From NCBI GenBank assembly GCA_903872185.1, contig CAIQJL010000086.1, forward strand, positions 4,989 to 68,988: a stretch of DNA of 64,000 nt, in the 5' to 3' direction. Source of the DNA: an uncultured Bacteroidota bacterium. GTDB lineage: Bacteria > Bacteroidota > Bacteroidia > Bacteroidales > GWA2-32-17. Positions 19,382 through 34,269 of this stretch are shown here, in pieces. Each line of letters opens with the position of its first letter. Position 1 is the stretch's first letter. The notes beneath the pieces were generated by a model. That model searched no databases, was not told the DNA's origin, and saw nothing but the letters and a program-made list of their open reading frames with translations. Made by a program: the position numbers and the translations under genes.

Positions 19382-21019
19382 TTATTCTTCTTCTATATTT
19401 TTCTTTTTGTGTTTTGTATAATAAACCGAAATCGCTATAGAGATTATAGCCAAAAACATAAAAGCAACAATTCTATAAATAATTCCTACAATAGCTAGAT
19501 CTACAATAAAAAGATAAATGGCTGCTGCTATCATTGTAAATATTGCCATCCATCTGTATTTAATATTATGTATTAAAAGGCTTAATAAAAAATAAACAAC
19601 TGCTGCAATAGACCATGATAATGTAACGTATTGCCCAGGAACAGCTTTATATAAAGCATAAAGCATAGTAAAGAATCCAAAAATTAAATAAATATTTCTT
19701 ATCAAATCTGTTTTAATATCAAGCCTTTTACTTTGCAAATTAATAACACGAGCAGTTATAATTGCAATTAATGCAAATGAAAAATTGATTGAATGAATTG
19801 ATTCAGCTGAAAAATAATAACCCGCCATTAAAAGTGCAAAAAGAAATAAATTCATAAACACAATAATCTTTGACCTGAACCAAATTGCCATTGAGACTAC
19901 AAGTAAACTCTGAATAGACAACAATAAATACGAAAGTGGCAAACCATAAACCCCATAAATAGCTGTGCTTATTGAGATAAAACCATATAACGCATAAAAA
20001 GCAGGAGTATATTTTAATTCGGAGTATTTCTTTAGAAAAACTGAAAAAAGCAAACAAATTGCAGAAATTGGCAAGAAAATCCAGACATAATTCATCATGT
20101 AGAAAGTAACAACATACATAGTAAGAATTGCGGTAAAAAATAAGCCATTAAGAATAATTGTAATAAATACAAATGCTTCAGGCATTGATTCTTTTTGTTT
20201 AAATAATGTAATCATTGAGAAGGCAGATACACAAACAAAAAGATAAGCAATACTATAATGATCAGATAGCCCGGCAACTAATTCCTTATCAACATTTACA
20301 TGAACAATGTACCAAACAATGAATGAAATATATGAAAAAAATTGAGCTACAACAATAAGTTTCCACCAACTATTCTTATGTAAAAGATAAACAGAAAAAA
20401 TAACTGCTAAAGTAACAACAGAAAGCATAAAATGAGTAGTATTACTAATATTTGCAGTTACTAAAAGCAAGATAAAACCAATAGATGCAAGAAATTCTGA
20501 ACTTTTTTTATTAGCAAAATAAAATTGAATAATACTTATAATCACTAATAAAATCAAAGGAACAGCCGGTTCTGAAATAAGAGGGAAGTCGGTAAAAAAA
20601 TGAAGTCGTAAAGTGACATAAAATAGAAGAATATAACTAATGATATTAAACTTAGAGGATAGCCCTGGTATAGATTTCTTAATATAATGTGCAATCACAA
20701 AAACTAATATTGATGCAACATATCCAAAAACAGTAGAAAATAGTGGCTGACCTGAACTCTGAATATATTGTGTTACAAAAGCAAGTCCGAACAAAAGAAC
20801 AATACTTCCAAGCCAACCTAAACCAAACTCACCAATTCTTGATTCCATTGCCGATTCTTTTTCTGAATCTGAAGGTTGCTGTTTTAACTCATCATTGGTA
20901 AGTTCTCTATCGTAGGCCTTATATTCTTCTTCAGTAACCTTTCTTACGCCTAACAATGACTCTAGCTGACCAACTCTTCGCTCTAAATAGTCTAGTTTTT
21001 CAATAATCTTTTCATCCAT
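19382..21019 (-). CDS. Polytopic membrane protein with N-terminal coiled-coil (DUF2339-like)
   Basis: 545 aa. Soluble N terminus MDEKIIEKLDYLERRVGQLESLLG, then about 14 hydrophobic helices. The family assignment is from memory only. Confidence 0.5.
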   Translation of the reverse strand: MDEKIIEKLDYLERRVGQLESLLGVRKVTEEEYKAYDRELTNDELKQQPSDSEKESAMESRIGEFGLGWLGSIVLLFGLAFVTQYIQSSGQPLFSTVFGYVASILVFVIAHYIKKSIPGLSSKFNIISYILLFYVTLRLHFFTDFPLISEPAVPLILLVIISIIQFYFANKKSSEFLASIGFILLLVTANISNTTHFMLSVVTLAVIFSVYLLHKNSWWKLIVVAQFFSYISFIVWYIVHVNVDKELVAGLSDHYSIAYLFVCVSAFSMITLFKQKESMPEAFVFITIILNGLFFTAILTMYVVTFYMMNYVWIFLPISAICLLFSVFLKKYSELKYTPAFYALYGFISISTAIYGVYGLPLSYLLLSIQSLLVVSMAIWFRSKIIVFMNLFLFALLMAGYYFSAESIHSINFSFALIAIITARVINLQSKRLDIKTDLIRNIYLIFGFFTMLYALYKAVPGQYVTLSWSIAAVVYFLLSLLIHNIKYRWMAIFTMIAAAIYLFIVDLAIVGIIYRIVAFMFLAIISIAISVYYTKHKKKNIEEE

Positions 21020-21149: not shown

Positions 21150-22346
21150 TTATTCATGCTCTATATGAGGAGCTTTCTTCCAAGGTGGTAATAACCATAA
21201 AAGAATAGTTAGAATAATTAGTGGAACAACTAACCAAATCATTCCCCCTAAAAACCCTTCTTTACCAATCATATCTAGCTTAAAGTCTGTAAATCCGTAA
21301 AAACTTTTTGAAAATAATTGACCGCCAATAACAACATTCCATCTCATAAAGAAAATCCCCACAAGAACACAAAGTGATAATATGAAATATACAAATTTAC
21401 GAATGTTCTCTTTTGGTTTTAAAAATTGGAATGTTCCTAGAGTTAATAATGGGATTAAGGTACCTATCAATCCTTGCATTATGAAGAAAGTAAAAAACAA
21501 TTTACCATGAACCAATAAATTCAATATATCAAATGATTCTTCAGCTACATAAATTCTATGAATCTGATCAAGCCCTTCTAAAACAAAATCAATAAGGAGA
21601 ATATAAAACAAATACTTACCAATAGCATCAAGACAAATCATGTCTAGTTTTTGTTTTCTAATTATACTTACTGCCATATAAATAAACATTACAAGAGCAA
21701 TACCAGAAACCATAGCAGAAAACAAGAAAATAACAGGCATCATTACAGTTGACCACCATGGGTTCGCTTTTACAGATCCGAAGATAAAGCCAACATATCC
21801 ATGTAAAATAAAAGCCGAAGGAATACCCACTACTGTGATAAAATAACCTAGTTTGTTGTCTGTAATTCTTGATTTATTAGAAACATCTTTAATTCCAAGT
21901 GTTAGGATTTTATATATTATTGATTTGAAACCTGGATTTTCTTTTGACCAGATTGTCATATCATATCTATAATCAAACCAAATTTCTAATAATAGTACAA
22001 CCATTAAGTACCACAAATACACAAAGCCAAAAATGGCCATTGCAGAAGTTAAATGTGGTGTTGTCATAATTTCGTAAAAACGAAATGGTTTTCCTAAGTG
22101 GAAAATAAGTGGCATTGTTGCCACAAGCATAAAAGAAAATGCAGTTAAAAGTGATAACTCATAAGTAGGTTTTAAAGCCTTAATATTAAATACCCTGTTA
22201 AGAGATGCTAAAATAAATGCTCCAGCAACTAATCCGGTAATATAAGGGTAAAGAACAATAAGTACAGACCAGTTTAATTCTATCTCGTTAGGATAGCAGT
22301 AGCCGTCCATCTTGGACATTGCTTCATATAATGATTGAAATTCCAT
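21150..22346 (-). CDS. NrfD/PsrC-family integral membrane quinone-interacting subunit
   Basis: 398 aa, 8-10 TM helices. Immediately downstream (1-nt gap) of the Tat-signal FeS subunit, the classical NrfC-NrfD / PsrB-PsrC / DsrO-DsrP arrangement. Confidence 0.75.
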   Translation of the reverse strand: MEFQSLYEAMSKMDGYCYPNEIELNWSVLIVLYPYITGLVAGAFILASLNRVFNIKALKPTYELSLLTAFSFMLVATMPLIFHLGKPFRFYEIMTTPHLTSAMAIFGFVYLWYLMVVLLLEIWFDYRYDMTIWSKENPGFKSIIYKILTLGIKDVSNKSRITDNKLGYFITVVGIPSAFILHGYVGFIFGSVKANPWWSTVMMPVIFLFSAMVSGIALVMFIYMAVSIIRKQKLDMICLDAIGKYLFYILLIDFVLEGLDQIHRIYVAEESFDILNLLVHGKLFFTFFIMQGLIGTLIPLLTLGTFQFLKPKENIRKFVYFILSLCVLVGIFFMRWNVVIGGQLFSKSFYGFTDFKLDMIGKEGFLGGMIWLVVPLIILTILLWLLPPWKKAPHIEHE

Positions 22347-22347
22347 A

Positions 22348-23112
22348 TTAATGTACCTCCTGACTTAATGCGTTATAATAAAGTTTTGAGCCGGTGTTTA
22401 AATTTGGTTTTAAAGCACCCACAGTATGATTTTTTATAAATTTAACCATTTCGCTTTTTGGATCACGAAGGTTCCCATATAGCCTTGCTCCAGTTGGACA
22501 AACCATCATACATGCTGGATCCATTCCTTTTTTTAATCTATGGTAGCAAAGTGTACATTTATCAACTGTACCTAAATCTGGTTTAATGTACCTGCATCCA
22601 TAAGGGCAAGCCTGAACGCAGTAACGACAGCCAACACAATAATTTGGATCAACAAGCACTACACCATCAGGAGAAACAAATGTTGCTCCTACCGGACAAA
22701 CCTGAGTACAAGGTGATTTAGAACAATGATTGCACATTTTAGGAACAAAAAAAGTTTTAAATATCTCTGATTCAGGAACTGGTTGTTTATAACCATCAAT
22801 GCCACCATTTGGTGATTGAACTTTTACTTCTCCGCTATTGGTAATGGTATATTGTTCAACCCAGCTTCTAAAGAAAAACGGTTCCTTTGGAACATCATTT
22901 TCAGCTTTACAAGCACGTGCACAACTAGCACAACCAATGCATTTTTCGATATCAAGACCTATACCATACCAAGTATCATCGCTCTTTGATTTTTCGGTTG
23001 ATTGAGCAGCTTTTAAAGGACTTAGCAATGATGCAAAGAGAACTCCTCCAGCTATTACTCCAGTTTTCTTAAAAAACTCTCTTCTTGAAAAGTCTTTATT
23101 TTCTTTTACCAT
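22348..23112 (-). CDS. Tat-exported 4Fe-4S ferredoxin-type subunit (NrfC/PsrB/DsrO-like)
   Basis: 254 aa. Twin-arginine signal SRREFFKKTGVIAGG. Four Cys clusters (CIGCASCARAC, CNHCSKSPCTQVCP, CVGCRYCVQACP, CTLC...CMMVCP). Confidence 0.85.
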   Translation of the reverse strand: MVKENKDFSRREFFKKTGVIAGGVLFASLLSPLKAAQSTEKSKSDDTWYGIGLDIEKCIGCASCARACKAENDVPKEPFFFRSWVEQYTITNSGEVKVQSPNGGIDGYKQPVPESEIFKTFFVPKMCNHCSKSPCTQVCPVGATFVSPDGVVLVDPNYCVGCRYCVQACPYGCRYIKPDLGTVDKCTLCYHRLKKGMDPACMMVCPTGARLYGNLRDPKSEMVKFIKNHTVGALKPNLNTGSKLYYNALSQEVH

Positions 23113-23552
23113 AAAACAGGATTATGAGAATTATGACAACTTATACATTCATCTTCTTTATTATGCTCATTCATATCAATTTGTTTGATAACTTTTGCAC
23201 GGGCAGGATTCTTACTATGACACCTTCCGCAGAATTCACGAGCATGTTCTTTTACAATATTTGTCTTTTGAGGATCGTCAACATGTTTGTAGCCTGGCCC
23301 ATGACAGGTCTGACAATTTATTGATTTATGCACACTACTATCTCTAACAGCTGCAATTGAATCATGACATGTTATACATGTTTCATTCATGTTAACATAC
23401 TTAATAGGTCTGTCTTCATTTTCTTTTAAAGCTGCACCCCTATAATGACCATATTCTCCAAAAGTGGCAGGTCTTAAAAAATGACGAGCAACCAAAAATA
23501 ATGCAATAAAGACCGCAAACGCAATCAGAAGTCTTTTTACTTGAACTGGCAT
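23106..23552 (-). CDS. Membrane-anchored tetraheme cytochrome c
   Basis: 148 aa. N-terminal TM helix and four CXXCH motifs (CITCH, CQTCH, CGRCH, CISCH). Overlaps the FeS gene by 7 nt. Confidence 0.85.
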   Translation of the reverse strand: MPVQVKRLLIAFAVFIALFLVARHFLRPATFGEYGHYRGAALKENEDRPIKYVNMNETCITCHDSIAAVRDSSVHKSINCQTCHGPGYKHVDDPQKTNIVKEHAREFCGRCHSKNPARAKVIKQIDMNEHNKEDECISCHNSHNPVLW

Positions 23553-23797: not shown

Positions 23798-25300
23798 CTA
23801 AAACATCTCGAAATGACAATTAGAACAGTTAGTTGTTTTCCAATCTTCTCCAATATCAACTGGATGAATAAATGGCATTGTTCCATTTATAGGAGAATAT
23901 TTAATAGAATCTCTCTGACCTTGACCAATTAATGTATGGCATAAATTACAATCCTTAGAAATAACTTTGCCATCAGATGATTTATGTTTATCGTCATGAC
24001 AACGGAAACAACCTTTATTTTCAAAATGTCCAATATTTCTTGGATATTTCTTATAGCTTACCCTCATGTAAGGAAATGTGTTATATGAAAATTCTTCTTG
24101 AATTGCAGTTACTGCCTTTTTAATTTCCTTCTCATATTTAGAAAATAAAGCGGGGTATCCTTCTTTATAATATTTAATCATCTGATCATTAATTCCTGCA
24201 AACGCAGAATCTTTTGTAGTATAAAGATCGTTTGTAGCTTCCATTGCAGCACTTTTAAGATAAGGAACTTTTGTGTCAATTCTATTTCCAGCAAACAATT
24301 CATTTACATAATGAGGAGGCGAAAAGTATTCATGTGATGGGCGATTATGACAATCCATACAATCCATCATTCGTTTTTCAGTAGTAGCAACTTCCTTAAC
24401 AGTAGGATGAATTGATGTGTCTTCTTCTACAAAAACAATCTCTTTTCCTGTTGACTTATTAAAATATCTTACCCAAGGAATTGTTTGGCGCTTTTCATCA
24501 GCTTGATATGTTATCTCAACATCGTTATTAATATGCCAATGTATTCCCTCGGTATTGCCTAATGCAGAATGATCGGCTCCAATTCTCATTTTCATAATAA
24601 CATCCCATTCGGTATTTGCAGAATCGGCTAAATAGTATTTTTGACTTCTAATTTTATTTGTATAGAATTTTTGAGGCCAATGGCATTTTTCACAAGTTTC
24701 ACGAGCTGGGCGTAAATTAGCTATAGGTGTTTCAATATTTCTTGGATAAGTTCCCAATATATATTTGTAAACCTGTCGTAAACCAGACATTTTAGATTTT
24801 ACATAAAAATCAGCTCCTTCACCAACATGACATTCTGCACATTTAACGCGAGCATGAGGTGAATGTTGATATGCAACATATTCAGGTTCCATCACTTTAT
24901 GACAAAGTTTTCCACAAAACTCTACCGATTCAGTATAATGAAATCCTTTATAACTACCTATTACAGTTGCAATAACAAAAAATATTGTAACAACAGTAAA
25001 AATAAGAATTGCATTTCGTGTTTGTGGATCTCTAAGATTAATGACTAATAATTTTTCGTCAGAAACAGGCAATCCTTTTTTAAGTTTTCTTTTTTTAAGA
25101 TACATCCCAGTAGGTATTAGGATTAATCCAAAAACAAGAAATCCTGGTGTAACTAAATACGCAAAAAGATCAAAGTAAACATTGTCTGTTTGAAAGAAAT
25201 TAATCTGTATAACAAAGAAAGTAATTGCAAAAGCTGCAATAATTGCAATAATAGATCCTAAATAGGAAATATAATTGTAATAAGTACGTGGTAGTTTCAT
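23798..25300 (-). CDS. Inner-membrane heptaheme cytochrome c with NapC/NirT-like region (ImcH-like)
   Basis: 500 aa with three N-terminal TM helices. NapC/NirT-like FCGKLCHKVMEPEYVAYQHSPHARVKCAECH. Seven heme motifs: CGKLCH (CX3CH), CAECH, CEKCH, CMDCH, CFRCH, CNLCH, CSNCH. Confidence 0.75.
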   Translation of the reverse strand: MKLPRTYYNYISYLGSIIAIIAAFAITFFVIQINFFQTDNVYFDLFAYLVTPGFLVFGLILIPTGMYLKKRKLKKGLPVSDEKLLVINLRDPQTRNAILIFTVVTIFFVIATVIGSYKGFHYTESVEFCGKLCHKVMEPEYVAYQHSPHARVKCAECHVGEGADFYVKSKMSGLRQVYKYILGTYPRNIETPIANLRPARETCEKCHWPQKFYTNKIRSQKYYLADSANTEWDVIMKMRIGADHSALGNTEGIHWHINNDVEITYQADEKRQTIPWVRYFNKSTGKEIVFVEEDTSIHPTVKEVATTEKRMMDCMDCHNRPSHEYFSPPHYVNELFAGNRIDTKVPYLKSAAMEATNDLYTTKDSAFAGINDQMIKYYKEGYPALFSKYEKEIKKAVTAIQEEFSYNTFPYMRVSYKKYPRNIGHFENKGCFRCHDDKHKSSDGKVISKDCNLCHTLIGQGQRDSIKYSPINGTMPFIHPVDIGEDWKTTNCSNCHFEMF

Positions 25301-25575
25301 TTTAAAACAATTAAATTATTTTTTTTATGTTGTAAAAATAACTAAAGACTTGCTTAAATCAAGCAATTTTTAAAAATGTTTAGTAATTTAGACGCTTTCT
25401 ATGTTTTAGAGCAGAGTTGTTAAACATCATTATTCATGTTTAATAATAGTTTACAGTACTTAAAAGACATCTAATTTTACAAGAAACAATATATAGTATG
25501 ATTATTAATAACCATATGTTAATTTAACTATATATAAATCAATTGTTATTTAACACATTACGTAAATATTTAATT

Positions 25576-27966
25576 ATGAAATTTATTAAATTTATTAAAG
25601 CAAATTCATTATTCTTTCTGATACTTTTTTGTATTGAAGCAAGCTCTCAAGAGATTGTTTGTTTAGATTGTCACGAGAATTTGGTTTCAAATTCGGTACA
25701 TAACAAGGTTATAAAATGTGGTGATTGTCATCGTGACATTACAACCACAGAACATGGTGCCGGCTCTGCAAAACCGGTTAATTGCGCTAATTGCCATGCA
25801 GCTTTAGATAAACTTATGAATAATGATGTTCATAGAAATATAATGAAGCTTGAAGAAAAAGATGCACCAAATTGCAAAAAATGCCATGGTACTCATAATA
25901 TAAAATCTCCTTCAAAAATTGAAAATAAGCAAAAAGAATATTGTAGTAAATGTCATAAAAATGAAGTTCTAAAATCTAATTATCATTATAGCAATGCCAA
26001 CAATGAAAATTGCAGCAAATGCCATAATGAAAAAATGCATAAAGAGAAATTAGCAAAATCTGTTCACAGCAAATTGAATTGCTCTAATTGTCACAGTTAT
26101 GTTGTAAATAATATTGGCAATCATAAAAAAGCTCCAAAAGACGGAGTTTTGGCAGATTGTTATTTATGTCATAGCGCTATTGCAGCTGAACATAAAGAAA
26201 GCATACACGGTTTGTCAATTTCAGAAGGGATTAATGAAGCAGCGCAATGCTGGGACTGTCATGGTTCACACGCAATTGATTCTATATCGAATAAAAACAG
26301 TTTAGTATTTCAAACAAATTTGGTAACAACATGTGGCAAATGTCATGATAATCCTGCATTTACAAAGAAACACTTATTTGCGATTAAAACTCCTGGTATA
26401 ATGTACTCGAAAAGCGTACATGGAAAAATAGTTGCTGATGGAAAAAATGCTGCAACATGTGTAACTTGTCATGGCAAACATGATATAAAAAACAGAATTC
26501 AACCAGGTTCTAAAATAGCAAGTATAAATATTCCTAATACATGTGAAGAATGCCATAAAGAAATTACTTTAGAATATAAACAATCTATACACTGGATTGC
26601 TGTTAAAAAAGGAATTAGAGAATCTCCATCTTGTAACGACTGCCATAGTGAACATAATATTCACGAAATTAATACTCCAGAAAAGAGAGAAGAAATTAAA
26701 AAAATTCAATCTCAGACATGTTTACAGTGTCATCAGAATTTAATGCTTTCTGAGAGATATGGAATGTCGGGTAATAGCGCAGGAAATTACGAAGACAGCT
26801 ATCATGGCTTGGCATCAGCTCATGGCGAAGATAAAGCAGCTTTATGTGTAGATTGTCATGGAGTACATAAAATATTACCAAAATCACACCCTGAATCTTC
26901 TATTAACAAAAACAATATTACTTCTACCTGTAAGAAATGTCACGCTAAAGCAACTGATGTTTTTTCAAACAGTTATTCGCATACAACGCAAGTTAACTCT
27001 GCAAAAAACATTGAGGACATTGTTACTTCGGTATATTTTTGGTTAATTGTAGTGGTTGTAGGATGGATGTTTGGGCATAATCTTTTAATATTAATTCACG
27101 AGCTAAGAAAACGTTATAAAAAATCTAAAAACGAAATTAGAATTCCTCGATTTACAACAAATGAATTAGTACAACATACTGTATTACTAGCTTCATTTAT
27201 AATATTAGCTATATCTGGTTTTCAATTAAAATATCCTGATAGTGCTTTTGGAAAGGCATTATATGCATTAGGTATGGATGAAAATATTCGTCAATGGGTT
27301 CATAGAATTTCTGCAATAGTAATGATTATACTTTCTGTTTACCATGCTATTTATTTAATTATTACAGCAAGAGGTAGAGATGTGCTAAAAGGATTATTCC
27401 CAAATTTCAGCGATGTATCGCAAGCTATGGGTAATATGTTATTTTATTTACATTTAAAAAAGAAACAACCAGAATTCGACAATTATAATTACATGGAAAA
27501 ACTCGAATACTGGGCATTAATATGGGGAACATTAGTAATGGGTGTTACTGGACTTGTACTTTGGTTCCCAACACTTGGTGGCGATTGGGCTCCTATTTGG
27601 TTTATTAAAGTAAGTGAGATTATACATTTTTACGAAGCAATACTTGCTACCTTGGCTATTGTTATTTGGCATTGGTTCTTTGTAATATTCCACCCAAAAG
27701 AATATCCTTTAAATTTCATTTGTATTGATGGTGAAATTACTATTCATCATTTTAAAGAAGAACATAAATTAAAATTCTACAAAGTAATTATTGAGTGGCT
27801 TGAAGTACAAAAAGGTATTCGTACCGCGAAAAAAATGAACCACTATACAAAGTTATTTATTAAAGCTGTTGAAAAAGGTGGTGTTACAATGGAAAGTCTA
27901 GTAAGTTCTGAGCTTAATAAAGACGAACATTTAATGGCATTAGCTGAACAACAAGGTTTAATATAA
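25576..27966 (+). CDS. 16-heme cytochrome c fused to a C-terminal FdnI/HydC-type cytochrome b membrane domain (CbcL-like)
   Basis: The ORF track starts at TTG 25543; ATG 25576 gives the signal peptide MKFIKFIKANSLFFLILFCIEASSQ. 16 CXXCH motifs by my count. The C-terminal ~300 aa have 4-5 TM helices with conserved His (LVQHTVLL, WVHRISAIV..YHAIYL, IIHFYEA...WHWFFVIFHP). Confidence 0.8.
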   Translation: MKFIKFIKANSLFFLILFCIEASSQEIVCLDCHENLVSNSVHNKVIKCGDCHRDITTTEHGAGSAKPVNCANCHAALDKLMNNDVHRNIMKLEEKDAPNCKKCHGTHNIKSPSKIENKQKEYCSKCHKNEVLKSNYHYSNANNENCSKCHNEKMHKEKLAKSVHSKLNCSNCHSYVVNNIGNHKKAPKDGVLADCYLCHSAIAAEHKESIHGLSISEGINEAAQCWDCHGSHAIDSISNKNSLVFQTNLVTTCGKCHDNPAFTKKHLFAIKTPGIMYSKSVHGKIVADGKNAATCVTCHGKHDIKNRIQPGSKIASINIPNTCEECHKEITLEYKQSIHWIAVKKGIRESPSCNDCHSEHNIHEINTPEKREEIKKIQSQTCLQCHQNLMLSERYGMSGNSAGNYEDSYHGLASAHGEDKAALCVDCHGVHKILPKSHPESSINKNNITSTCKKCHAKATDVFSNSYSHTTQVNSAKNIEDIVTSVYFWLIVVVVGWMFGHNLLILIHELRKRYKKSKNEIRIPRFTTNELVQHTVLLASFIILAISGFQLKYPDSAFGKALYALGMDENIRQWVHRISAIVMIILSVYHAIYLIITARGRDVLKGLFPNFSDVSQAMGNMLFYLHLKKKQPEFDNYNYMEKLEYWALIWGTLVMGVTGLVLWFPTLGGDWAPIWFIKVSEIIHFYEAILATLAIVIWHWFFVIFHPKEYPLNFICIDGEITIHHFKEEHKLKFYKVIIEWLEVQKGIRTAKKMNHYTKLFIKAVEKGGVTMESLVSSELNKDEHLMALAEQQGLI

Positions 27967-28128: not shown

Positions 28129-28785
28129 TTATTCTTTTGAAGCATCATTTACTATATCATTATCAAATTCAATAATTTTATACATATAGGTTGGAAAGTC
28201 AATATCAAGCTTTCTTACATCTGCAAAATAGTCATCGCCTGCATATAATTCAATTTTCTTTTTCTCTTTGTTAACATTAAATGCTAATTGACCTGAAAAA
28301 AAATGCGAATAATTAAAATAATATAAATTGTATCCTTCAGGTTGCGCCTTTACTTCATTTTTCTTATCAAATAACTGAGTACCTGTTTTTATTAAAATAT
28401 TTTTTGCAGTACCACTATCATCATCTACATCTATTTTTGTAGTACAATCATATAATTTAAAAGTTTTAGGTTTTTGTGCAATATGTTTTGGATGATTTTT
28501 ATTTACCCACCTTAAACAGATATCTGAGAATTGTGAATAAAAAGAACTAATTTCAATGTCCATTTCAAAGCCTAATGGCTTCTCTACATATTTTTGCCAT
28601 CCTTTATCTCCTATATTGTATGGAAATCCAACTAATAAATGAGTTATTATAACGTCTTTGTGCGAATTAAGCTGATACACAAATGACTTGAAATCATTTG
28701 CGAAATTCTCCATTTTTGTACCTGGAATACCTTTAATATTTTGCTGTTCGGCAAATATTGTTTGTAAATTTTTTTCGGTTATCAT
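28129..28785 (-). CDS. Hypothetical cytoplasmic protein (no recognisable domain)
   Basis: 218-aa ORF with no signal peptide, TM helix or Cys motifs. It has its own terminator and lies between the two CbcL-like genes. Confidence 0.55.
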   Translation of the reverse strand: MITEKNLQTIFAEQQNIKGIPGTKMENFANDFKSFVYQLNSHKDVIITHLLVGFPYNIGDKGWQKYVEKPLGFEMDIEISSFYSQFSDICLRWVNKNHPKHIAQKPKTFKLYDCTTKIDVDDDSGTAKNILIKTGTQLFDKKNEVKAQPEGYNLYYFNYSHFFSGQLAFNVNKEKKKIELYAGDDYFADVRKLDIDFPTYMYKIIEFDNDIVNDASKE

Positions 28786-28930: not shown

Positions 28931-31714
28931 CTAGTATGTACCTGCTATTAAAGAATAAATAATAAGCCCAACTAATACTATTCCGGTAAATAAGAATATG
29001 TAACCAAATACTTTTACTGTTTTAATCCAATTTTGCGAGAATGCTTTTTTAACAATTACTGTATCTAGTTTTCCAGCTTTTTCTAATTCTTCATATTCTT
29101 TTGGTCTATCGGCTTTATACTCTTCTAATGGAACATGTCCGGTAAATATTACAGTATCCATTGGGAAAGCCTCAGGGCGTAAGTGAGTGTTAAAAAAGTG
29201 AATTGTAAAAATAAATCCAACAGCCAATAAAGCTTCATCGCTATGTATTATTTGAGCTACATTAATTAACCAGCCAGGGAAGAATTTTGTAAAATATTCG
29301 GGTAGCCATAACACTAGACCAGAGAAACCAATAACAGCAACTCCCCAGAATACCGCCATGTAATCAAATTTTTCCCAATATGTCCAACGACCATAATAAG
29401 GACGTGGTCCAGCTCCTAAGAACCATTTAACAGTACCAATAGCATCTTTTAAATCTTGTTTGTTAAACATTAAAGAATCTTTGCCAAAAATGAATGACAT
29501 AATTTTTGTCTTATTTCTGATTTTCATTCTTATTAATGAGAATACATGGAAAATAAAGTATCCAAAAGTAATAACTGCTGCAAAACGATGTATATTACCT
29601 GCCACATGAACGCCACCAATTAACTTTGCCATATTAAATGCCCAAGGCATATGAGCAAATTTAAGCATCATACCTGTAAGTGCTAACAATAAGAAACTAA
29701 CAATTACAAAAACATGGGTTATTCTCTGGCTCTTTTTAAATCTACGGAAATAAACAGCTTCACCTGTTGGCATTTTATGATGCTTCTTTTTTCTTGCTTC
29801 CATAATAGACCTTGGTATCCATAACAACGTGTGAATTCCAAAAATTCCAAATACACTTAGAAGAAGAGTAGTCATAATCCAAAATGTATAAAACAATACA
29901 TTATTATCGTTGTGGGTAGCATGAGTTAAATATCCGGTAAACTCAACATTTGCATTTGGATGGCATTGCTTACAAGTTTTAACAATATTTTTTTGCCCTA
30001 CCATCGACTCTGGATTCGAAATTTTTAAAATTTTATGAGCACCATGACAGTCAGAACATCTTGCAGCTTTTAAATAACCAAGGGTATAAGCTTTGCCATG
30101 ATAAGTTTCCATATAAGTCTCAGCAAGTTTCTTATGACAACTACCACACTGCATAGTGATCTCATTTAAGAATTTATCTTTATCTATTTCGGTAATTGTA
30201 TGAGCAGTATGGCAACTTGCACAAGTAGGGAATTTTTTACCACCATTGTCTGCTGTTATTGCATGATCACTTGTCATATAATCATCATAAATACTCTTAT
30301 GACATTTCGAGCATGTTTTAGGAACATTTAATGGATTTACTGTAGAATTTAAATCAGATTCTTTTAGTATGTTATGTGAGGTATGACAATCGGTACAAAC
30401 TGCACTTGCAAGCAATCCTTTTTCTTTTAATCCTTTTCCATGAACACTTGAAGAATAATCACTAAAAGCATCTATTTCTTTTAAATGTGTATTAATAACT
30501 GCTTTTCCATTTTTGTTGTGGCATTTTCCACAAAGCTCAGGTATAGAACCTCTATAAGTAGGTGACGTATCATCATATCTTGTTTTTACTTTATGTGTTC
30601 CATGACAATCTGTACAATATGGAGCATTTGGCTGTTTTTTAAAGTAAGCCTGACCATGTCCACTTGTTATATATATATTTGAAACCTGCTCGTGGCAACC
30701 AGAGCAATCAACTTTTTTATTAGTAATACAAGGGCGTTCTTTTTTATTATCTATTGTTACCTCAGAATGACACTTTGTACAAGGAATATTTTTATGTGCA
30801 GAATTTACTAAATCGTCTTTGTTAATTTTAAGTGATACTTTTTGGTTATTTACCATCTTATATGTATCAGCATTCTCATGACATTTTAAACAAAGCTGAT
30901 TTGAAACAGTTTCTTCAATTTTCTTAATTTTAACAATGTGCGATGGGTGACAGTCACTACATGCAGGAACAGACCCAGCTTGCTTTTCCCATAATTCTCT
31001 TTTAATAACCTTTGTATGTACTTCTTCAATTCTTGCATGGCATTTCATACATGTACTCGCAATCTTATTAGGCGAGATAGAAGAATTTGGACTTGTATGT
31101 GGCAATATTAAGTGATTACCATGACAGTCGTTACAAGTTGCTGAAACAATTAACCCGCTTTTAAATAAACCTTTACCATGGATACTTTCACTATAATGTT
31201 CTAAAATATTACTTTGAGGAATGTTATACAATCTTGCAACAGGAGATCCTTCTTTATGGCATTTACCACAAAGAATTGGAATATTCATTTTATAAGTTAA
31301 CGATTTTGGATTTGTGTGATTTAATATTCCATGTCCACCATGGCATTCTTTACAATCTGGAGCATAAGGAGCATTTAATTTTAAAGCTTGGCCATGTATA
31401 CCTGCAAAAAATTGCATTTGTGCATTTTTATGGCAACCACCACATTCAACTGGTTTTAAATTTTCGGGATGAGGAAATTCTGCTACTGCAGCATCTTTAT
31501 GACAAGAAGCGCAAAGAACACTTTTATGAACTGATTTATTCAGGATATTCTTATCGGCATATAGCGAAATAGTTTTTCCCTGTCTAACTTTTGATAATCC
31601 ATGATCTTCATGGCACATCAAACAATCATCATTTGTTTGGGAAAATAAACTACTAGTTATTAAAACTATACTAAAAACAACTAATAATAATTTTTGACTA
31701 ATTTGATTTAACAT
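28931..31714 (-). CDS. 19-heme cytochrome c fused to a C-terminal FdnI/HydC-type cytochrome b membrane domain (CbcL-like paralog)
   Basis: 927 aa with signal peptide and 19 CXXCH motifs by my count. The C-terminal membrane domain has conserved His ([31 protein letters not shown]...IHFFNTHL), the same architecture as 25576..27966. Confidence 0.8.
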
Positions 31715-31757
31715 TTTATATAATTTTTATCTTAATATTTACCTTTTTACAACTATA

Positions 31758-31765
31758 CAAATGTA
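31758..31765 (-). promoter_or_regulatory. -7 box TACATTTG upstream of the 19-heme gene, within a shared 15-mer
   Basis: The plus strand reads caaatgta, 43 nt upstream of the ATG at 31714. It is embedded in atacaaatgtataat (31755-31769), which recurs at 34159-34173. Confidence 0.4.
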
Positions 31766-32172
31766 TAATCGCTTTATTTATTAAAAAATGTTATACAACA
31801 TTGTTGATATTAAATAACAGTTTTTATTAAACATGTTTATTTATCCCCTAAAACATTTACACGATTTAAACTATTCACTATATCTGATCAAAACATTAGC
31901 ACAACTCATTTTTACCAATTTGAACAATTAAATAACATGTGAAATATAAAAGTATTATTAAACACAGTTTTTTTAAATTACATTTTTATTTCACAACTAT
32001 TGAGAGACAGTTGCAAAACTCCTTTTCGTCATTACTAACTCGTCCCTTGTCATAATTAACTAAGTGAAGAAATCTATAAATTATTGCAAATAAGATTGCT
32101 TCGCAATAGCTGTGACTTATGTTTCGGGGAATTTTGGAACGATCTTATTACTTTAAAAGATGTTATAAAATA

Positions 32173-32205
32173 AAAAATCCGATTTAATAATTAAATCGGA
32201 TTTTT
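32173..32205 (-). terminator. Bidirectional-looking hairpin terminator after the beta-barrel gene
   Basis: 15-bp perfect stem aaaaatccgatttaa/ttaaatcggattttt with a 3-nt loop, 20 nt downstream of the stop at 32226. Confidence 0.7.
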
Positions 32206-32225: not shown

Positions 32226-33116
32226 TTAGAACCTAACAGTAATATTAAAACCAATTAATAAACTATTAAAATCCCTATGATTATATAAATAATTTTTTTG
32301 TGCAATTATATTGTTATAAGTAGTTGCAAATAACTGAAATGCATGAGTACCACCATTTTTCTCAAAGCCAAAAGCAAAACCTGGCTTAGAAGCTCCCGGC
32401 ACATCTTCACCATCAGCATTTTTTGGATAATCAAATGATTCAAGTGGTGAAACATAATTAAATTCTGCCATAAATGATATCTCATTCCAGATTTTAAACC
32501 TACCACCTATGCTAGCACCAATAGCCTGATTAGAATATAAAGAATCAACTTTATTGAAATGTAAAAAATATGGTGCAATTTCCATTGATAATCTCTCACT
32601 AAATTTACGTGCAATAATAAGTTGGTGAAAATAAGATAGGCGACTTGCAAAATTATAGTTATCACCAAAATACGCTTTTTCTCTACCACAAATAACTACA
32701 TTTCCATAATAAGTAAGGAAGAAAGGCATTCCATTTTCTTTTTGTTGAAGTATAGAATATTTCAATAAAAATTCCTGCATTTTATTGAATTTTTCGGTAC
32801 CAAATCCAATCATTAATTTATCGGTAATTCCATAATTAATTCCAAGTCTTGTGTTAGCAGGTCCGTATACACCAAATAAATCGCTTAATTTTTTAATTGT
32901 ACCTATTCTGTGATGAATAATAAATTCTTTTGATTTTTTGGTTGGCTGGTTTATAGTTTGTGTTTCGATAAGCATAGAACAAGCAAATGCATCTGCAACA
33001 GGAGTTTTTGCTACTGAAGGTGTTTCTACTGCTGGTGTTTCTACTTCTTGTGAAACAGCAAAATTAATGCTGATTATCAGCACTAGAGATAAGACAAAAG
33101 CTATTTTTTTTAACAT
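32226..33116 (-). CDS. Small outer-membrane beta-barrel protein
   Basis: 296 aa. Signal peptide MLKKIAFVLSLVLIISINFAVSQ, alternating amphipathic strands, and a C-terminal aromatic ...LLIGFNITVRF. Lies 33 nt downstream of the lipoprotein cytochrome gene. Confidence 0.6.
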   Translation of the reverse strand: MLKKIAFVLSLVLIISINFAVSQEVETPAVETPSVAKTPVADAFACSMLIETQTINQPTKKSKEFIIHHRIGTIKKLSDLFGVYGPANTRLGINYGITDKLMIGFGTEKFNKMQEFLLKYSILQQKENGMPFFLTYYGNVVICGREKAYFGDNYNFASRLSYFHQLIIARKFSERLSMEIAPYFLHFNKVDSLYSNQAIGASIGGRFKIWNEISFMAEFNYVSPLESFDYPKNADGEDVPGASKPGFAFGFEKNGGTHAFQLFATTYNNIIAQKNYLYNHRDFNSLLIGFNITVRF

Positions 33117-33149
33117 AATAATGTATTTATTTATTGTTTGTTTTTTATT

Positions 33150-34079
33150 TTACCAGCACTTTTTACCAACTCCACAATGAGCTGCATTACCATTACCAGA
33201 ATATCTTGACCCATTTGCCATTGTTCCGCCAGCGCTAATGCTTAAAGGTTTAAAGAAAGTTTGGCCGTCAACATGATAATTAGTTCCGTAAGTTCCTTGT
33301 AAGTTGGAATTATTAATAATATTAACGCTATCATTAGCAGCAGCTACGGTACTTGTATTATGACACCAAAAACACTGAACTCCATCCCATTGAGGAGTAG
33401 TATAAGGTGATGCAGAAAAATCTTTATTATTTGTCATATGAAAAAGTAATTGATGCTGACCTGATTCTGGATAATTACTTTGTTTCATAGAGTTTGGTTT
33501 TGAAACAAGAAAAGGTGAAGTCATGTTTCCTAAACCATTGTGACAAGAAGTACATTCAGTTACCTTACCATTATCCCATCTTGGTGTGGTAGCATAAACA
33601 GCAATCTGCTTGCCAACAGTAGCGCTCCAATTCATTGATCCAACAGCATTTGGATATCCTGGATCTTGTCCGCGATATGCTGTACGACCATTACTATGAC
33701 AATATACATTTGAACAAGTTTTATTCTTAGAATCCCAAGTTGGAGAATTACTGTCATTTCCGTTTCTGGTAATCAAACTAGTTAAATTAAATGTAACATT
33801 TTTAACACCATTCATGTGTGTTGCAGTTTCATATCCATGTCCAAAATGGCAAGTGTTACAGCTATATGCATATAAACCTTTAGTGTGCTTAGCATGTGCA
33901 TTAGAAGAATGCTCTGCAAAAGTACCATTATGACAATTTTCACATAACTCAGGCAAAACAGTAGAACCTGGTGCGGGAGTATTTTTAAAAGTGATTTTCT
34001 GTTTTTCACACGAGGCTAAAAAAATTACACTACTTATTAGTAACGTAAACAAAATAGTCCTTAAATTTTTCACATTCAT
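33150..34079 (-). CDS. Lipoprotein multiheme cytochrome c (5 heme motifs including one CX4CH)
   Basis: The ORF track starts at 34127; ATG 34079 gives MNVKNLRTILFTLLISSVIFLASC, a lipobox signal peptide. Motifs: CENCH, CNTCH, CSNVYCH (CX4CH, codons 33696-33716), CTSCH, CFWCH. Confidence 0.75.
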   Translation of the reverse strand: MNVKNLRTILFTLLISSVIFLASCEKQKITFKNTPAPGSTVLPELCENCHNGTFAEHSSNAHAKHTKGLYAYSCNTCHFGHGYETATHMNGVKNVTFNLTSLITRNGNDSNSPTWDSKNKTCSNVYCHSNGRTAYRGQDPGYPNAVGSMNWSATVGKQIAVYATTPRWDNGKVTECTSCHNGLGNMTSPFLVSKPNSMKQSNYPESGQHQLLFHMTNNKDFSASPYTTPQWDGVQCFWCHNTSTVAAANDSVNIINNSNLQGTYGTNYHVDGQTFFKPLSISAGGTMANGSRYSGNGNAAHCGVGKKCW

Positions 34080-34161
34080 TACTTTATATTTAGTTAAATT
34101 AAAATTAAAGCTCTTAGAAATACTCAAATATGATTTAAAACATAAATCATGTTTAATAATA

Positions 34162-34169
34162 CAAATGTA
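34162..34169 (-). promoter_or_regulatory. -7 box TACATTTG upstream of the lipoprotein cytochrome / barrel operon, within a shared 15-mer
   Basis: The plus strand reads caaatgta inside atacaaatgtataat (34159-34173), 83 nt upstream of ATG 34079. Confidence 0.4.
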
Positions 34170-34269
34170 TAATTTGATTTTTTTAAAAAAAAATATATTA
34201 TCTCTTTTTATATTAAAGACATAGTAATTACATCGTTAACGTACGTAATTATAACTTTAATAATATAAC

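Follow-up and report, generated by a model that had tools for sequence, protein, structure and literature searches.

A pentahaem lipoprotein and a small DUF5777 beta-barrel as a candidate outer-membrane end of a haem island in an uncultured Bacteroidota bacterium

Introduction

How might respiratory electrons be brought to the outer membrane in the Bacteroidota, a phylum that is abundant in sediments, soils, bioreactors and guts, and for which we know of no described outer-membrane electron-transfer component? The question is raised by a stretch of 64,000 nucleotides (nt) from an uncultured bacterium of the Bacteroidales (contig CAIQJL010000086.1, positions 4,989 to 68,988; here called the window), in which a gene for a pentahaem lipoprotein cytochrome and a gene for a small outer-membrane beta-barrel stand side by side within an island of cytochrome genes. 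A preliminary description of the window proposed that this pair could be the surface-exposed or outer-membrane-associated part of the island, and doubted that so small a barrel could thread a cytochrome through the membrane.

Judged from sequence comparisons, the pair is a genus-specific variant of a conserved Bacteroidota module, a haem lipoprotein together with a predicted 12-stranded DUF5777 barrel. As to its role, we lean towards the view that the two proteins work as one functional unit at the outer-membrane end of a CbcL/ImcH/NrfCD haem island, the haem lipoprotein facing the periplasm and docking on the small barrel.

Organization of the gene pair

Both genes are on the minus strand, with a gap of 33 nt between the stop codon of the cytochrome gene and the ATG of the barrel gene; a terminator-like hairpin begins about 20 nt past the barrel stop codon. 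The features of the pair are as follows.

33150-34079, minus strand: pentahaem lipoprotein c-type cytochrome of 309 amino acids (aa), of the CxxxxCH/CXXCH (GSu_C4xC__C2xCH) family, from the open reading frame (ORF), hidden Markov model (HMM) matches and an alignment of homologues
33696-33716, minus strand: codons of the CX4CH haem motif CSNVYCH (C122-H128), read from the DNA as TGT TCA AAT GTA TAT TGT CAT
32226-33116, minus strand: DUF5777 outer-membrane beta-barrel of 296 aa with 12 predicted strands, from HMM match and AlphaFold2 model
32173-32205, minus strand: intrinsic-terminator-like hairpin closing the two-gene unit, with a 15-bp stem, a 3-nt loop and a T-rich tail

The cytochrome gene runs from an ATG (MNVKN...) to a stop codon at 33152-33150; an alternative upstream TTG at 34127 would give a product of 325 aa, and the Met equivalent to that of MNVKN is the start in 31 homologues. 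The product has a lipobox (FLAS-C24) and five haem motifs, CENCH (C46), CNTCH (C74), CSNVYCH (C122-H128), CTSCH (C176) and CFWCH (C236). Because all five are invariant in 32 aligned homologues they are not chance occurrences; C122, Y126, C127 and H128 of the CX4CH motif are each invariant. Among the other histidines of the same alignment, H88, H209, H214, H269 and H301 are invariant and H62 and H65 nearly so, and these could serve as distal haem ligands; the C-terminus has an invariant HC...C-W. The protein passes the curated cut-offs of both Pfam GSu_C4xC__C2xCH (PF09698; 27.2 bits, cut-off 21.7) and NCBIfam TIGR01904 (43.1 bits, cut-off 27), and has the CX4CH...CXXCH order in its invariant CSNVYCH and CTSCH motifs. 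By profile matching it is a member of the Geobacter-named CxxxxCH/CXXCH family, as its motif arrangement had suggested in the preliminary description. Its relatives in the whole library number only 49, and sequence and profile searches of the PDB gave a single marginal match, to a reaction-centre cytochrome (E 0.0013).

The barrel gene starts with an ATG at 33116. The predicted signal peptide ends in ...AVS, giving a predicted mature N-terminus at Q23 and a mature protein of 274 aa that terminates in ...ITVRF, with Phe as the final residue. The match to Pfam DUF5777 (PF19089) spans the complete model (positions 1-247 of 247; E 4.3e-61, 206.7 bits, cut-off 23.1), and a profile search found a single DUF5777 copy in the 4.3-Mb genome. 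Read afresh from the DNA, the particulars given in the preliminary description were all confirmed: the FLASC lipobox, the five haem motifs and the position of the CSNVYCH codons (33716-33696), the 33-nt spacing, the length, signal peptide and C-terminus of the barrel, and the strong terminator.

A strand count and a structure-based search, both advised in that description, were carried out with an AlphaFold2 model of the barrel built from 55 sequences (predicted local distance difference test score, pLDDT, 87; predicted template-modelling score 0.81). The model has 12 strands, preceded by a conserved N-terminal segment (residues 41-62) with pLDDT 93-96. Foldseek returned only generic outer-membrane barrels of 12-14 strands (OmpG, NanC, Tsx, FapF, COG4313) with template-modelling (TM) scores of at most 0.53, LpxR being among the weak matches, and sequence and profile searches of the PDB recovered no solved relative. 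Across the 129 barrels compared, whose identity to that of the window falls to 27%, H69, H258, Q125, G82, F260 and G289 are invariant and several Arg and Lys residues nearly invariant. From hydrophobic alternation, an ambiguous guide here, H69 is placed on the hydrophobic face of strand 1 beside the conserved I67 and F71, and H258 on that of strand 11 beside F260.

The DUF5777 family and its cytochrome partners

A family search found DUF5777 in 167 of 401 Bacteroidota genomes (42%) and in 90 of 180 genera, and a library-wide profile search found 1,914 clusters at 50% identity. A full-text literature search found no paper mentioning DUF5777, and a literature search on porin-cytochrome systems in Bacteroidota found nothing relevant. 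Gene neighbourhoods were compared in two samples, one phylum-wide (129 DUF5777 loci across Bacteroidota) and one of closest barrels (80 genome loci, those whose barrels are most similar, from a set of 330 relatives).

A haem lipoprotein is encoded no more than three genes from the barrel in 112 of the 129 loci, many of the others being cut by short flanks, and the pentahaem-barrel pair itself is syntenic in seven related metagenome-assembled genomes, where its other neighbours vary. The tie between the pair and the cytochrome island drawn in the preliminary description is upheld by both observations, and the barrel family is not one that occurs mostly without cytochrome neighbours, the finding which that description had named as speaking against its proposal.

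A maximum-likelihood tree of the 129 barrels resolves two deep clades, divided by a fully supported (100%) branch of length 1.26. In clade A, sampled with 49 barrels, YceI-like proteins are part of the arrangement and flank the barrel in 43 loci; in clade B a one-haem gene lies directly upstream and respiratory genes downstream, and YceI is absent. Among the closest-barrel loci, about 70 have a homologous one-haem lipoprotein of about 125 aa directly upstream of the barrel. Members of this one-haem family have exactly one haem motif in 94 of 95 cases over the whole sample (75 CXXCH, 19 CX4CH). Within the one-haem clade, a heptahaem with a C-terminal transmembrane helix follows the barrel in 42 of the 80 loci, with a cytochrome b561 next in 38; a Crp/Fnr regulator, NrfC, NrfD, six-haem lipoproteins and CcsBA are common neighbours in this sample. 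At more distant loci the order is one-haem lipoprotein, YceI-like protein, barrel, in some with a second YceI or a Rieske protein with a twin-arginine translocation (Tat) signal. The two components also occur as a natural fusion: in P0276 (407 aa) a signal peptide is followed by a one-haem cytochrome c of class I (LCTACHG) and then by a DUF5777 barrel (residues 136-404).

Several variant loci were recorded in these samples. Three with clade-A barrels (L089, L099, L110) have a Tat-signal Rieske-type protein (C-x-H ... C-x-x-H) upstream and YceI downstream, so the barrel would accept iron-sulphur (FeS) as well as haem partners. Seven Saprospiraceae loci (L024, L032, L035, L036, L039, L049 and L079) use CX4CH (CNISGCH) in the one-haem partner and have a Tat-signal NrfC-like FeS protein, with no heptahaem, directly after the barrel. 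P0190 (615 aa) contains two DUF5777 barrels in tandem.

Exchange of the cytochrome partner

The barrel of the window belongs to a subclade of eight (100% support, stem 0.55) that is nested in clade B and has the pentahaem as its partner. Of the 80 closest-barrel loci, the six with barrels closest to that of the window have the pentahaem immediately upstream, and a seventh subclade locus (L008) ends at a contig edge. Within the genus, six of eight genomes have the pentahaem; of the 53 other genomes sampled in the family and order, none does. By tree and gene order, the pentahaem is shown to have replaced the one-haem partner in this subclade, with the barrel keeping its place. The residues fixed in the pentahaem subclade and different from the one-haem clade number only about eight; most fall in an insertion in predicted loop 5, and they carry no information on the side of docking.

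The one-haem and pentahaem profiles align only over the signal peptide, lipobox, CEK.KI tether and first CXXCH (hhalign 95%, E 3.5e-8, a score inflated by the signal peptide), which suggests that the new partner kept or copied a tether needed for sorting or docking. The one-haem family itself gave no Pfam match above threshold; weak matches to PSCyt1 and PccH (PF22297) were seen, the latter in 16 of 26 members. With the family profile, matches were obtained to the haem domain of hydrazine synthase alpha (9e-8), to both FoxE domains (5mab, 2.6e-7) and to the one-haem cytochrome c chain 4rlr (4.4e-5), which we take to be PccH. FoxE is the Fe(II)-oxidising dihaem cytochrome of phototrophs (PMC10654088). 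The pentahaem aligns with this FoxE/PccH-like family only over residues ~10-53 and has no C-terminal W-I-x-x-G-A motif; by profile, the one-haem partners have a FoxE/PccH/PSCyt1-like haem domain, this motif included, and the pentahaem does not.

The surrounding haem island

The genes for the pair lie in a 51-haem island with the following further respiratory genes.

28931-31714, minus strand: 19-haem c-b fusion, a CbcL-like quinol-linked cytochrome (Paired_CXXCH, Cytochrome_C7, Ni_hydr_CYTB)
25543-27966: second CbcL-like c-b fusion
23798-25300: ImcH/NapC-like cytochrome
23106-23552: small c7-type cytochrome
21150-23112: NrfCD

The 19-haem CbcL-like gene lies downstream of the barrel, has the same place in three relatives (L002, L005 and L008), and is likely to encode the inner-membrane end of the same chain. 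The fused protein thus occupies the position that in the one-haem clade belongs to the heptahaem and a separate cytochrome b561. A DmsE-family model scores 78.8 against its product, far under the cut-off of 192.2. Across the related genomes the variable neighbours of the pair are this gene, or ImcH-like, c7 and NrfCD genes, or six-haem lipoproteins with Crp; in one relative (L004), ImcH-like, c7-like, NrfC and NrfD genes stand in place of the 19-haem gene.

Two ORFs of the island have no Pfam match. One (28129-28785, 218 aa) lies between the two CbcL-like genes and was dropped as a component, there being no homologue at the same position in syntenic relatives; the other (19382-21019, 545 aa) is directly downstream of NrfD.

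Comparison with known systems

In outline the unit resembles a porin-cytochrome module, but it lacks the features that define MtrCAB/PioAB, Pcc and Cyc2. Like MtrCAB of Shewanella and PioAB/MtoAB, it places an outer-membrane barrel gene beside c-type cytochromes, one of them a lipoprotein (as MtrC is), linked to inner-membrane quinol dehydrogenases. MtrB/PioB, however, is a 26-strand barrel of ~650-700 aa that sheathes a decahaem, whereas the barrel of the window has 274 mature residues and 12 predicted strands, its only partner is the pentahaem lipoprotein, and no periplasmic decahaem of the MtrA/PioA type is paired with it. No MtrB_PioB (PF11854) match was found in the genome at E up to 0.01. 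A barrel of 12 strands is too small to surround a cytochrome, and MtrB/PioB is absent from the genome; the MtrCAB/Pcc mechanism is therefore excluded, and the earlier doubt about threading by an MtrB/OmbB-type barrel proves well placed.

The Geobacter Pcc clusters (OmbB-OmaB-OmcB) likewise combine a lipoprotein multihaem cytochrome with an outer-membrane barrel, and CbcL- and ImcH-like genes are near, as here. In these clusters OmaB and OmcB are held by the larger, porin-like OmbB; DUF5777 is unrelated to it by HMM and far smaller, and the pair has one cytochrome rather than two. Cyc2 of iron oxidisers also joins one small cytochrome to one modest barrel, in the same domain order as P0276. Cyc2 is a single polypeptide with a larger barrel of ~16 predicted strands, whereas in the window the unit is split between two genes separated by 33 nt, with a lipoprotein partner, five haems and a barrel of 12 predicted strands; by architecture it is set apart from Cyc2.

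FoxE and PccH, with roles in Fe(II) oxidation and electron uptake respectively, have haem domains homologous to the ancestral one-haem partner. Both are soluble periplasmic proteins with no barrel partner, and the pentahaem shares with the one-haem family only the N-terminal region of lipobox, tether and first haem. The remaining system for comparison is BcnA-LcoA, in which a lipocalin of the YceI family (BcnA) and a cytochrome b561 (LcoA) detoxify lipid peroxyl radicals (PMC9113575). The likeness lies in the YceI-like proteins that flank DUF5777 in the sister clade and the cytochrome b561 that comes after the module in clade B; unlike the module, BcnA-LcoA has neither a barrel nor a c-type cytochrome, and no YceI gene adjoins the pair in the window. 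What is new at this locus is the swap to a pentahaem partner, its restriction to one genus and its direct neighbourhood with fused CbcL-type cytochromes.

Proposed function of the pair

We propose that electrons may pass to the pair from a quinol-linked chain made up of the two CbcL-like c-b fusions, the ImcH/NapC-like cytochrome, NrfCD and the small c7-type cytochrome. The pentahaem would be lipid-anchored through C24 and face the periplasm, where it would take electrons from periplasmic or inner-membrane cytochromes, and it would dock on the barrel through the conserved N-terminal tether (CEK.KI...). The barrel would be the membrane-embedded partner and the site of the redox reaction with the final substrate, not a sheath, and might act either by letting a small substrate in or through a site around the two invariant histidines.

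The orientation of the pentahaem can be judged from its tether and from the natural fusion. In Bacteroidota, the surface-export signal of lipoproteins is K-(D/E)2 or Q-A-(D/E)2 just after the lipid cysteine (PMC5080379). Neither was found after the lipid cysteine of the pentahaem or its homologues, which have CEK[QE]K or CGKDK at this position; the tether of the pentahaem, CEKQKITFK, is net positive. In P0276 the cytochrome is N-terminal to strand 1, usually the periplasmic side. Because the tether is net positive without K-(D/E)2 and the cytochrome of P0276 precedes strand 1, the pentahaem probably faces the periplasm. Of the two possibilities offered in the preliminary description, association with the outer membrane is thus the one that we favour, with the reserve expressed above, while surface exposure finds no backing in a tether that has no K-(D/E)2 signal.

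Four points weigh against this reading. A Glu is invariant at position +2 after the lipid cysteine, and either membrane could hold the anchor. The AlphaFold2 model of the pentahaem (32-sequence alignment) reaches a pLDDT of only 43, on which account it was dropped from the fold search. The hydrophobic parity of H69 and H258 would not obviously fit a lumenal site. Finally, DUF5777 is frequent in lineages where YceI-like lipid binders or Rieske proteins flank the barrel, and the ancestral role of the family may not have been respiration to an external acceptor. Since the family is also common beside a YceI-like lipid binder, metal respiration is only one possibility.

The unit is the best candidate for bringing respiratory electrons to the Bacteroidota outer membrane, because the barrel keeps its place while its partner changes from one haem to five and because it adjoins CbcL-/ImcH-type quinol-linked cytochromes. 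If the proposal is right, a marker present in 42% of the sampled Bacteroidota genomes would become available to gene-based surveys of extracellular electron transfer or iron cycling, and the mechanism would be other than the known cytochrome-in-a-sheath design.

Alternative explanations

A first alternative, possible but rather unlikely in our estimate, is a function in outer-membrane protection or lipid redox chemistry: DUF5777 would bind or convert a lipid, a quinone or a lipid radical in the outer membrane, the haem lipoprotein would serve solely as its electron supply, and the module would draw on the haem island without respiring an external acceptor. The YceI-like proteins that flank 43 of the 49 clade A barrels and the cytochrome b561 after the module in clade B fit this explanation, as does the presence of the family in 167 of 401 genomes, which points to a general rather than a specialist function. 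So does the placement of H69 and H258; in PagL and LpxR, which are lipid enzymes of the outer membrane, hydrophobic strand faces likewise bear the catalytic residues, and LpxR is one of the weak fold matches. The barrel of the window, however, belongs to clade B, which is without YceI and is set among multihaem, NrfCD and CbcL-type respiratory genes; a 51-haem island would be a heavy supply line for repair, and no catalytic Ser/Asp pattern was identified in the barrel.

It is unlikely that DUF5777 is itself a redox-active outer-membrane barrel, in which H69, H258 and the adjacent conserved aromatics hold a haem or other cofactor. The barrel would then be a minimal trans-outer-membrane electron relay with an interchangeable one-electron partner (one-haem, pentahaem, Rieske or fused cytochrome c), and would constitute a third architecture, beside MtrCAB-type sheaths and Cyc2, in a large share of the Bacteroidota.

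Display of the cytochrome on the cell surface seems to us quite improbable. Here the barrel would export or anchor the cytochrome, its tether threaded as in RcsF-OmpA or Slam-type systems, and the pentahaem would be an extracellular terminal reductase. A CEK.KI tether conserved after the lipid cysteine of the pentahaem and of some one-haem partners, a 12-strand lumen with room for an extended peptide, and a partner-specific barrel subclade on a long stem branch (0.55) are all compatible with threading. The net-positive tether has neither K-(D/E)2 nor Q-A-(D/E)2 (PMC5080379), though, the cytochrome of P0276 is on the usual periplasmic side of strand 1, and barrel residues 41-62, modelled with pLDDT 93-96, may themselves fill the lumen.

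We give still less credence to Fe(II) oxidation or ferrous-iron handling, in which Fe2+ would enter through the barrel and be oxidised by the haem lipoprotein on the periplasmic side, much as by FoxE or in a split Cyc2, with electrons flowing inward to the c-b cytochromes. The matches of the ancestral one-haem family to both FoxE haem domains and to PccH accord with it, as does the Cyc2 domain order of P0276, and invariant His, Gln and Asn side chains might form the wall of a metal path in the barrel. Yet the likeness of the pentahaem to FoxE is confined to ~45 residues at its N-terminus, the module is spread very widely among ordinary heterotrophs, and the CbcL- and ImcH-like neighbours have counterparts known from Fe(III) and electrode reduction in Geobacter.

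That the barrel is an unrelated porin lying beside a cytochrome gene by accident, as its purely generic fold matches to the porins OmpG, NanC and Tsx might allow, is exceedingly improbable given a pairing kept in 112 of 129 loci over two deep clades, a 33-nt gap with a shared terminator, and the natural fusion P0276; by these comparisons the cytochrome-barrel pairing is not a matter of chance.

Repeats and other features

One further feature lies upstream of the pair.

34159-34170, minus strand: inverted repeat ATACA-TT-TGTAT, about 80 nt upstream of the cytochrome ATG

The window has one further exact copy of this 12-mer, at 31755-31766 upstream of the CbcL-like gene; of the relatives, only the closest (L002) has both copies at these distances. 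Allowing up to one mismatch, there are three matches in the window; 29 of 100 shuffles were as good, so this is not beyond chance. The shared 12-mer is at most a weak hint of co-regulation of the cytochrome-barrel unit and the CbcL-like gene, and the ATACATTTGTAT repeat was rejected as a conserved operator, being retained in L002 alone and no better than chance in the window.

Elsewhere in the same genome, contig C38 carries an orphan one-haem FoxE/PccH-like lipoprotein gene (locus L133, 5988-6353, minus strand; E 2.6e-13) with no barrel adjoining; beside it are genes for a membrane protein of 510 aa and for two large, secreted proteins with repeats.

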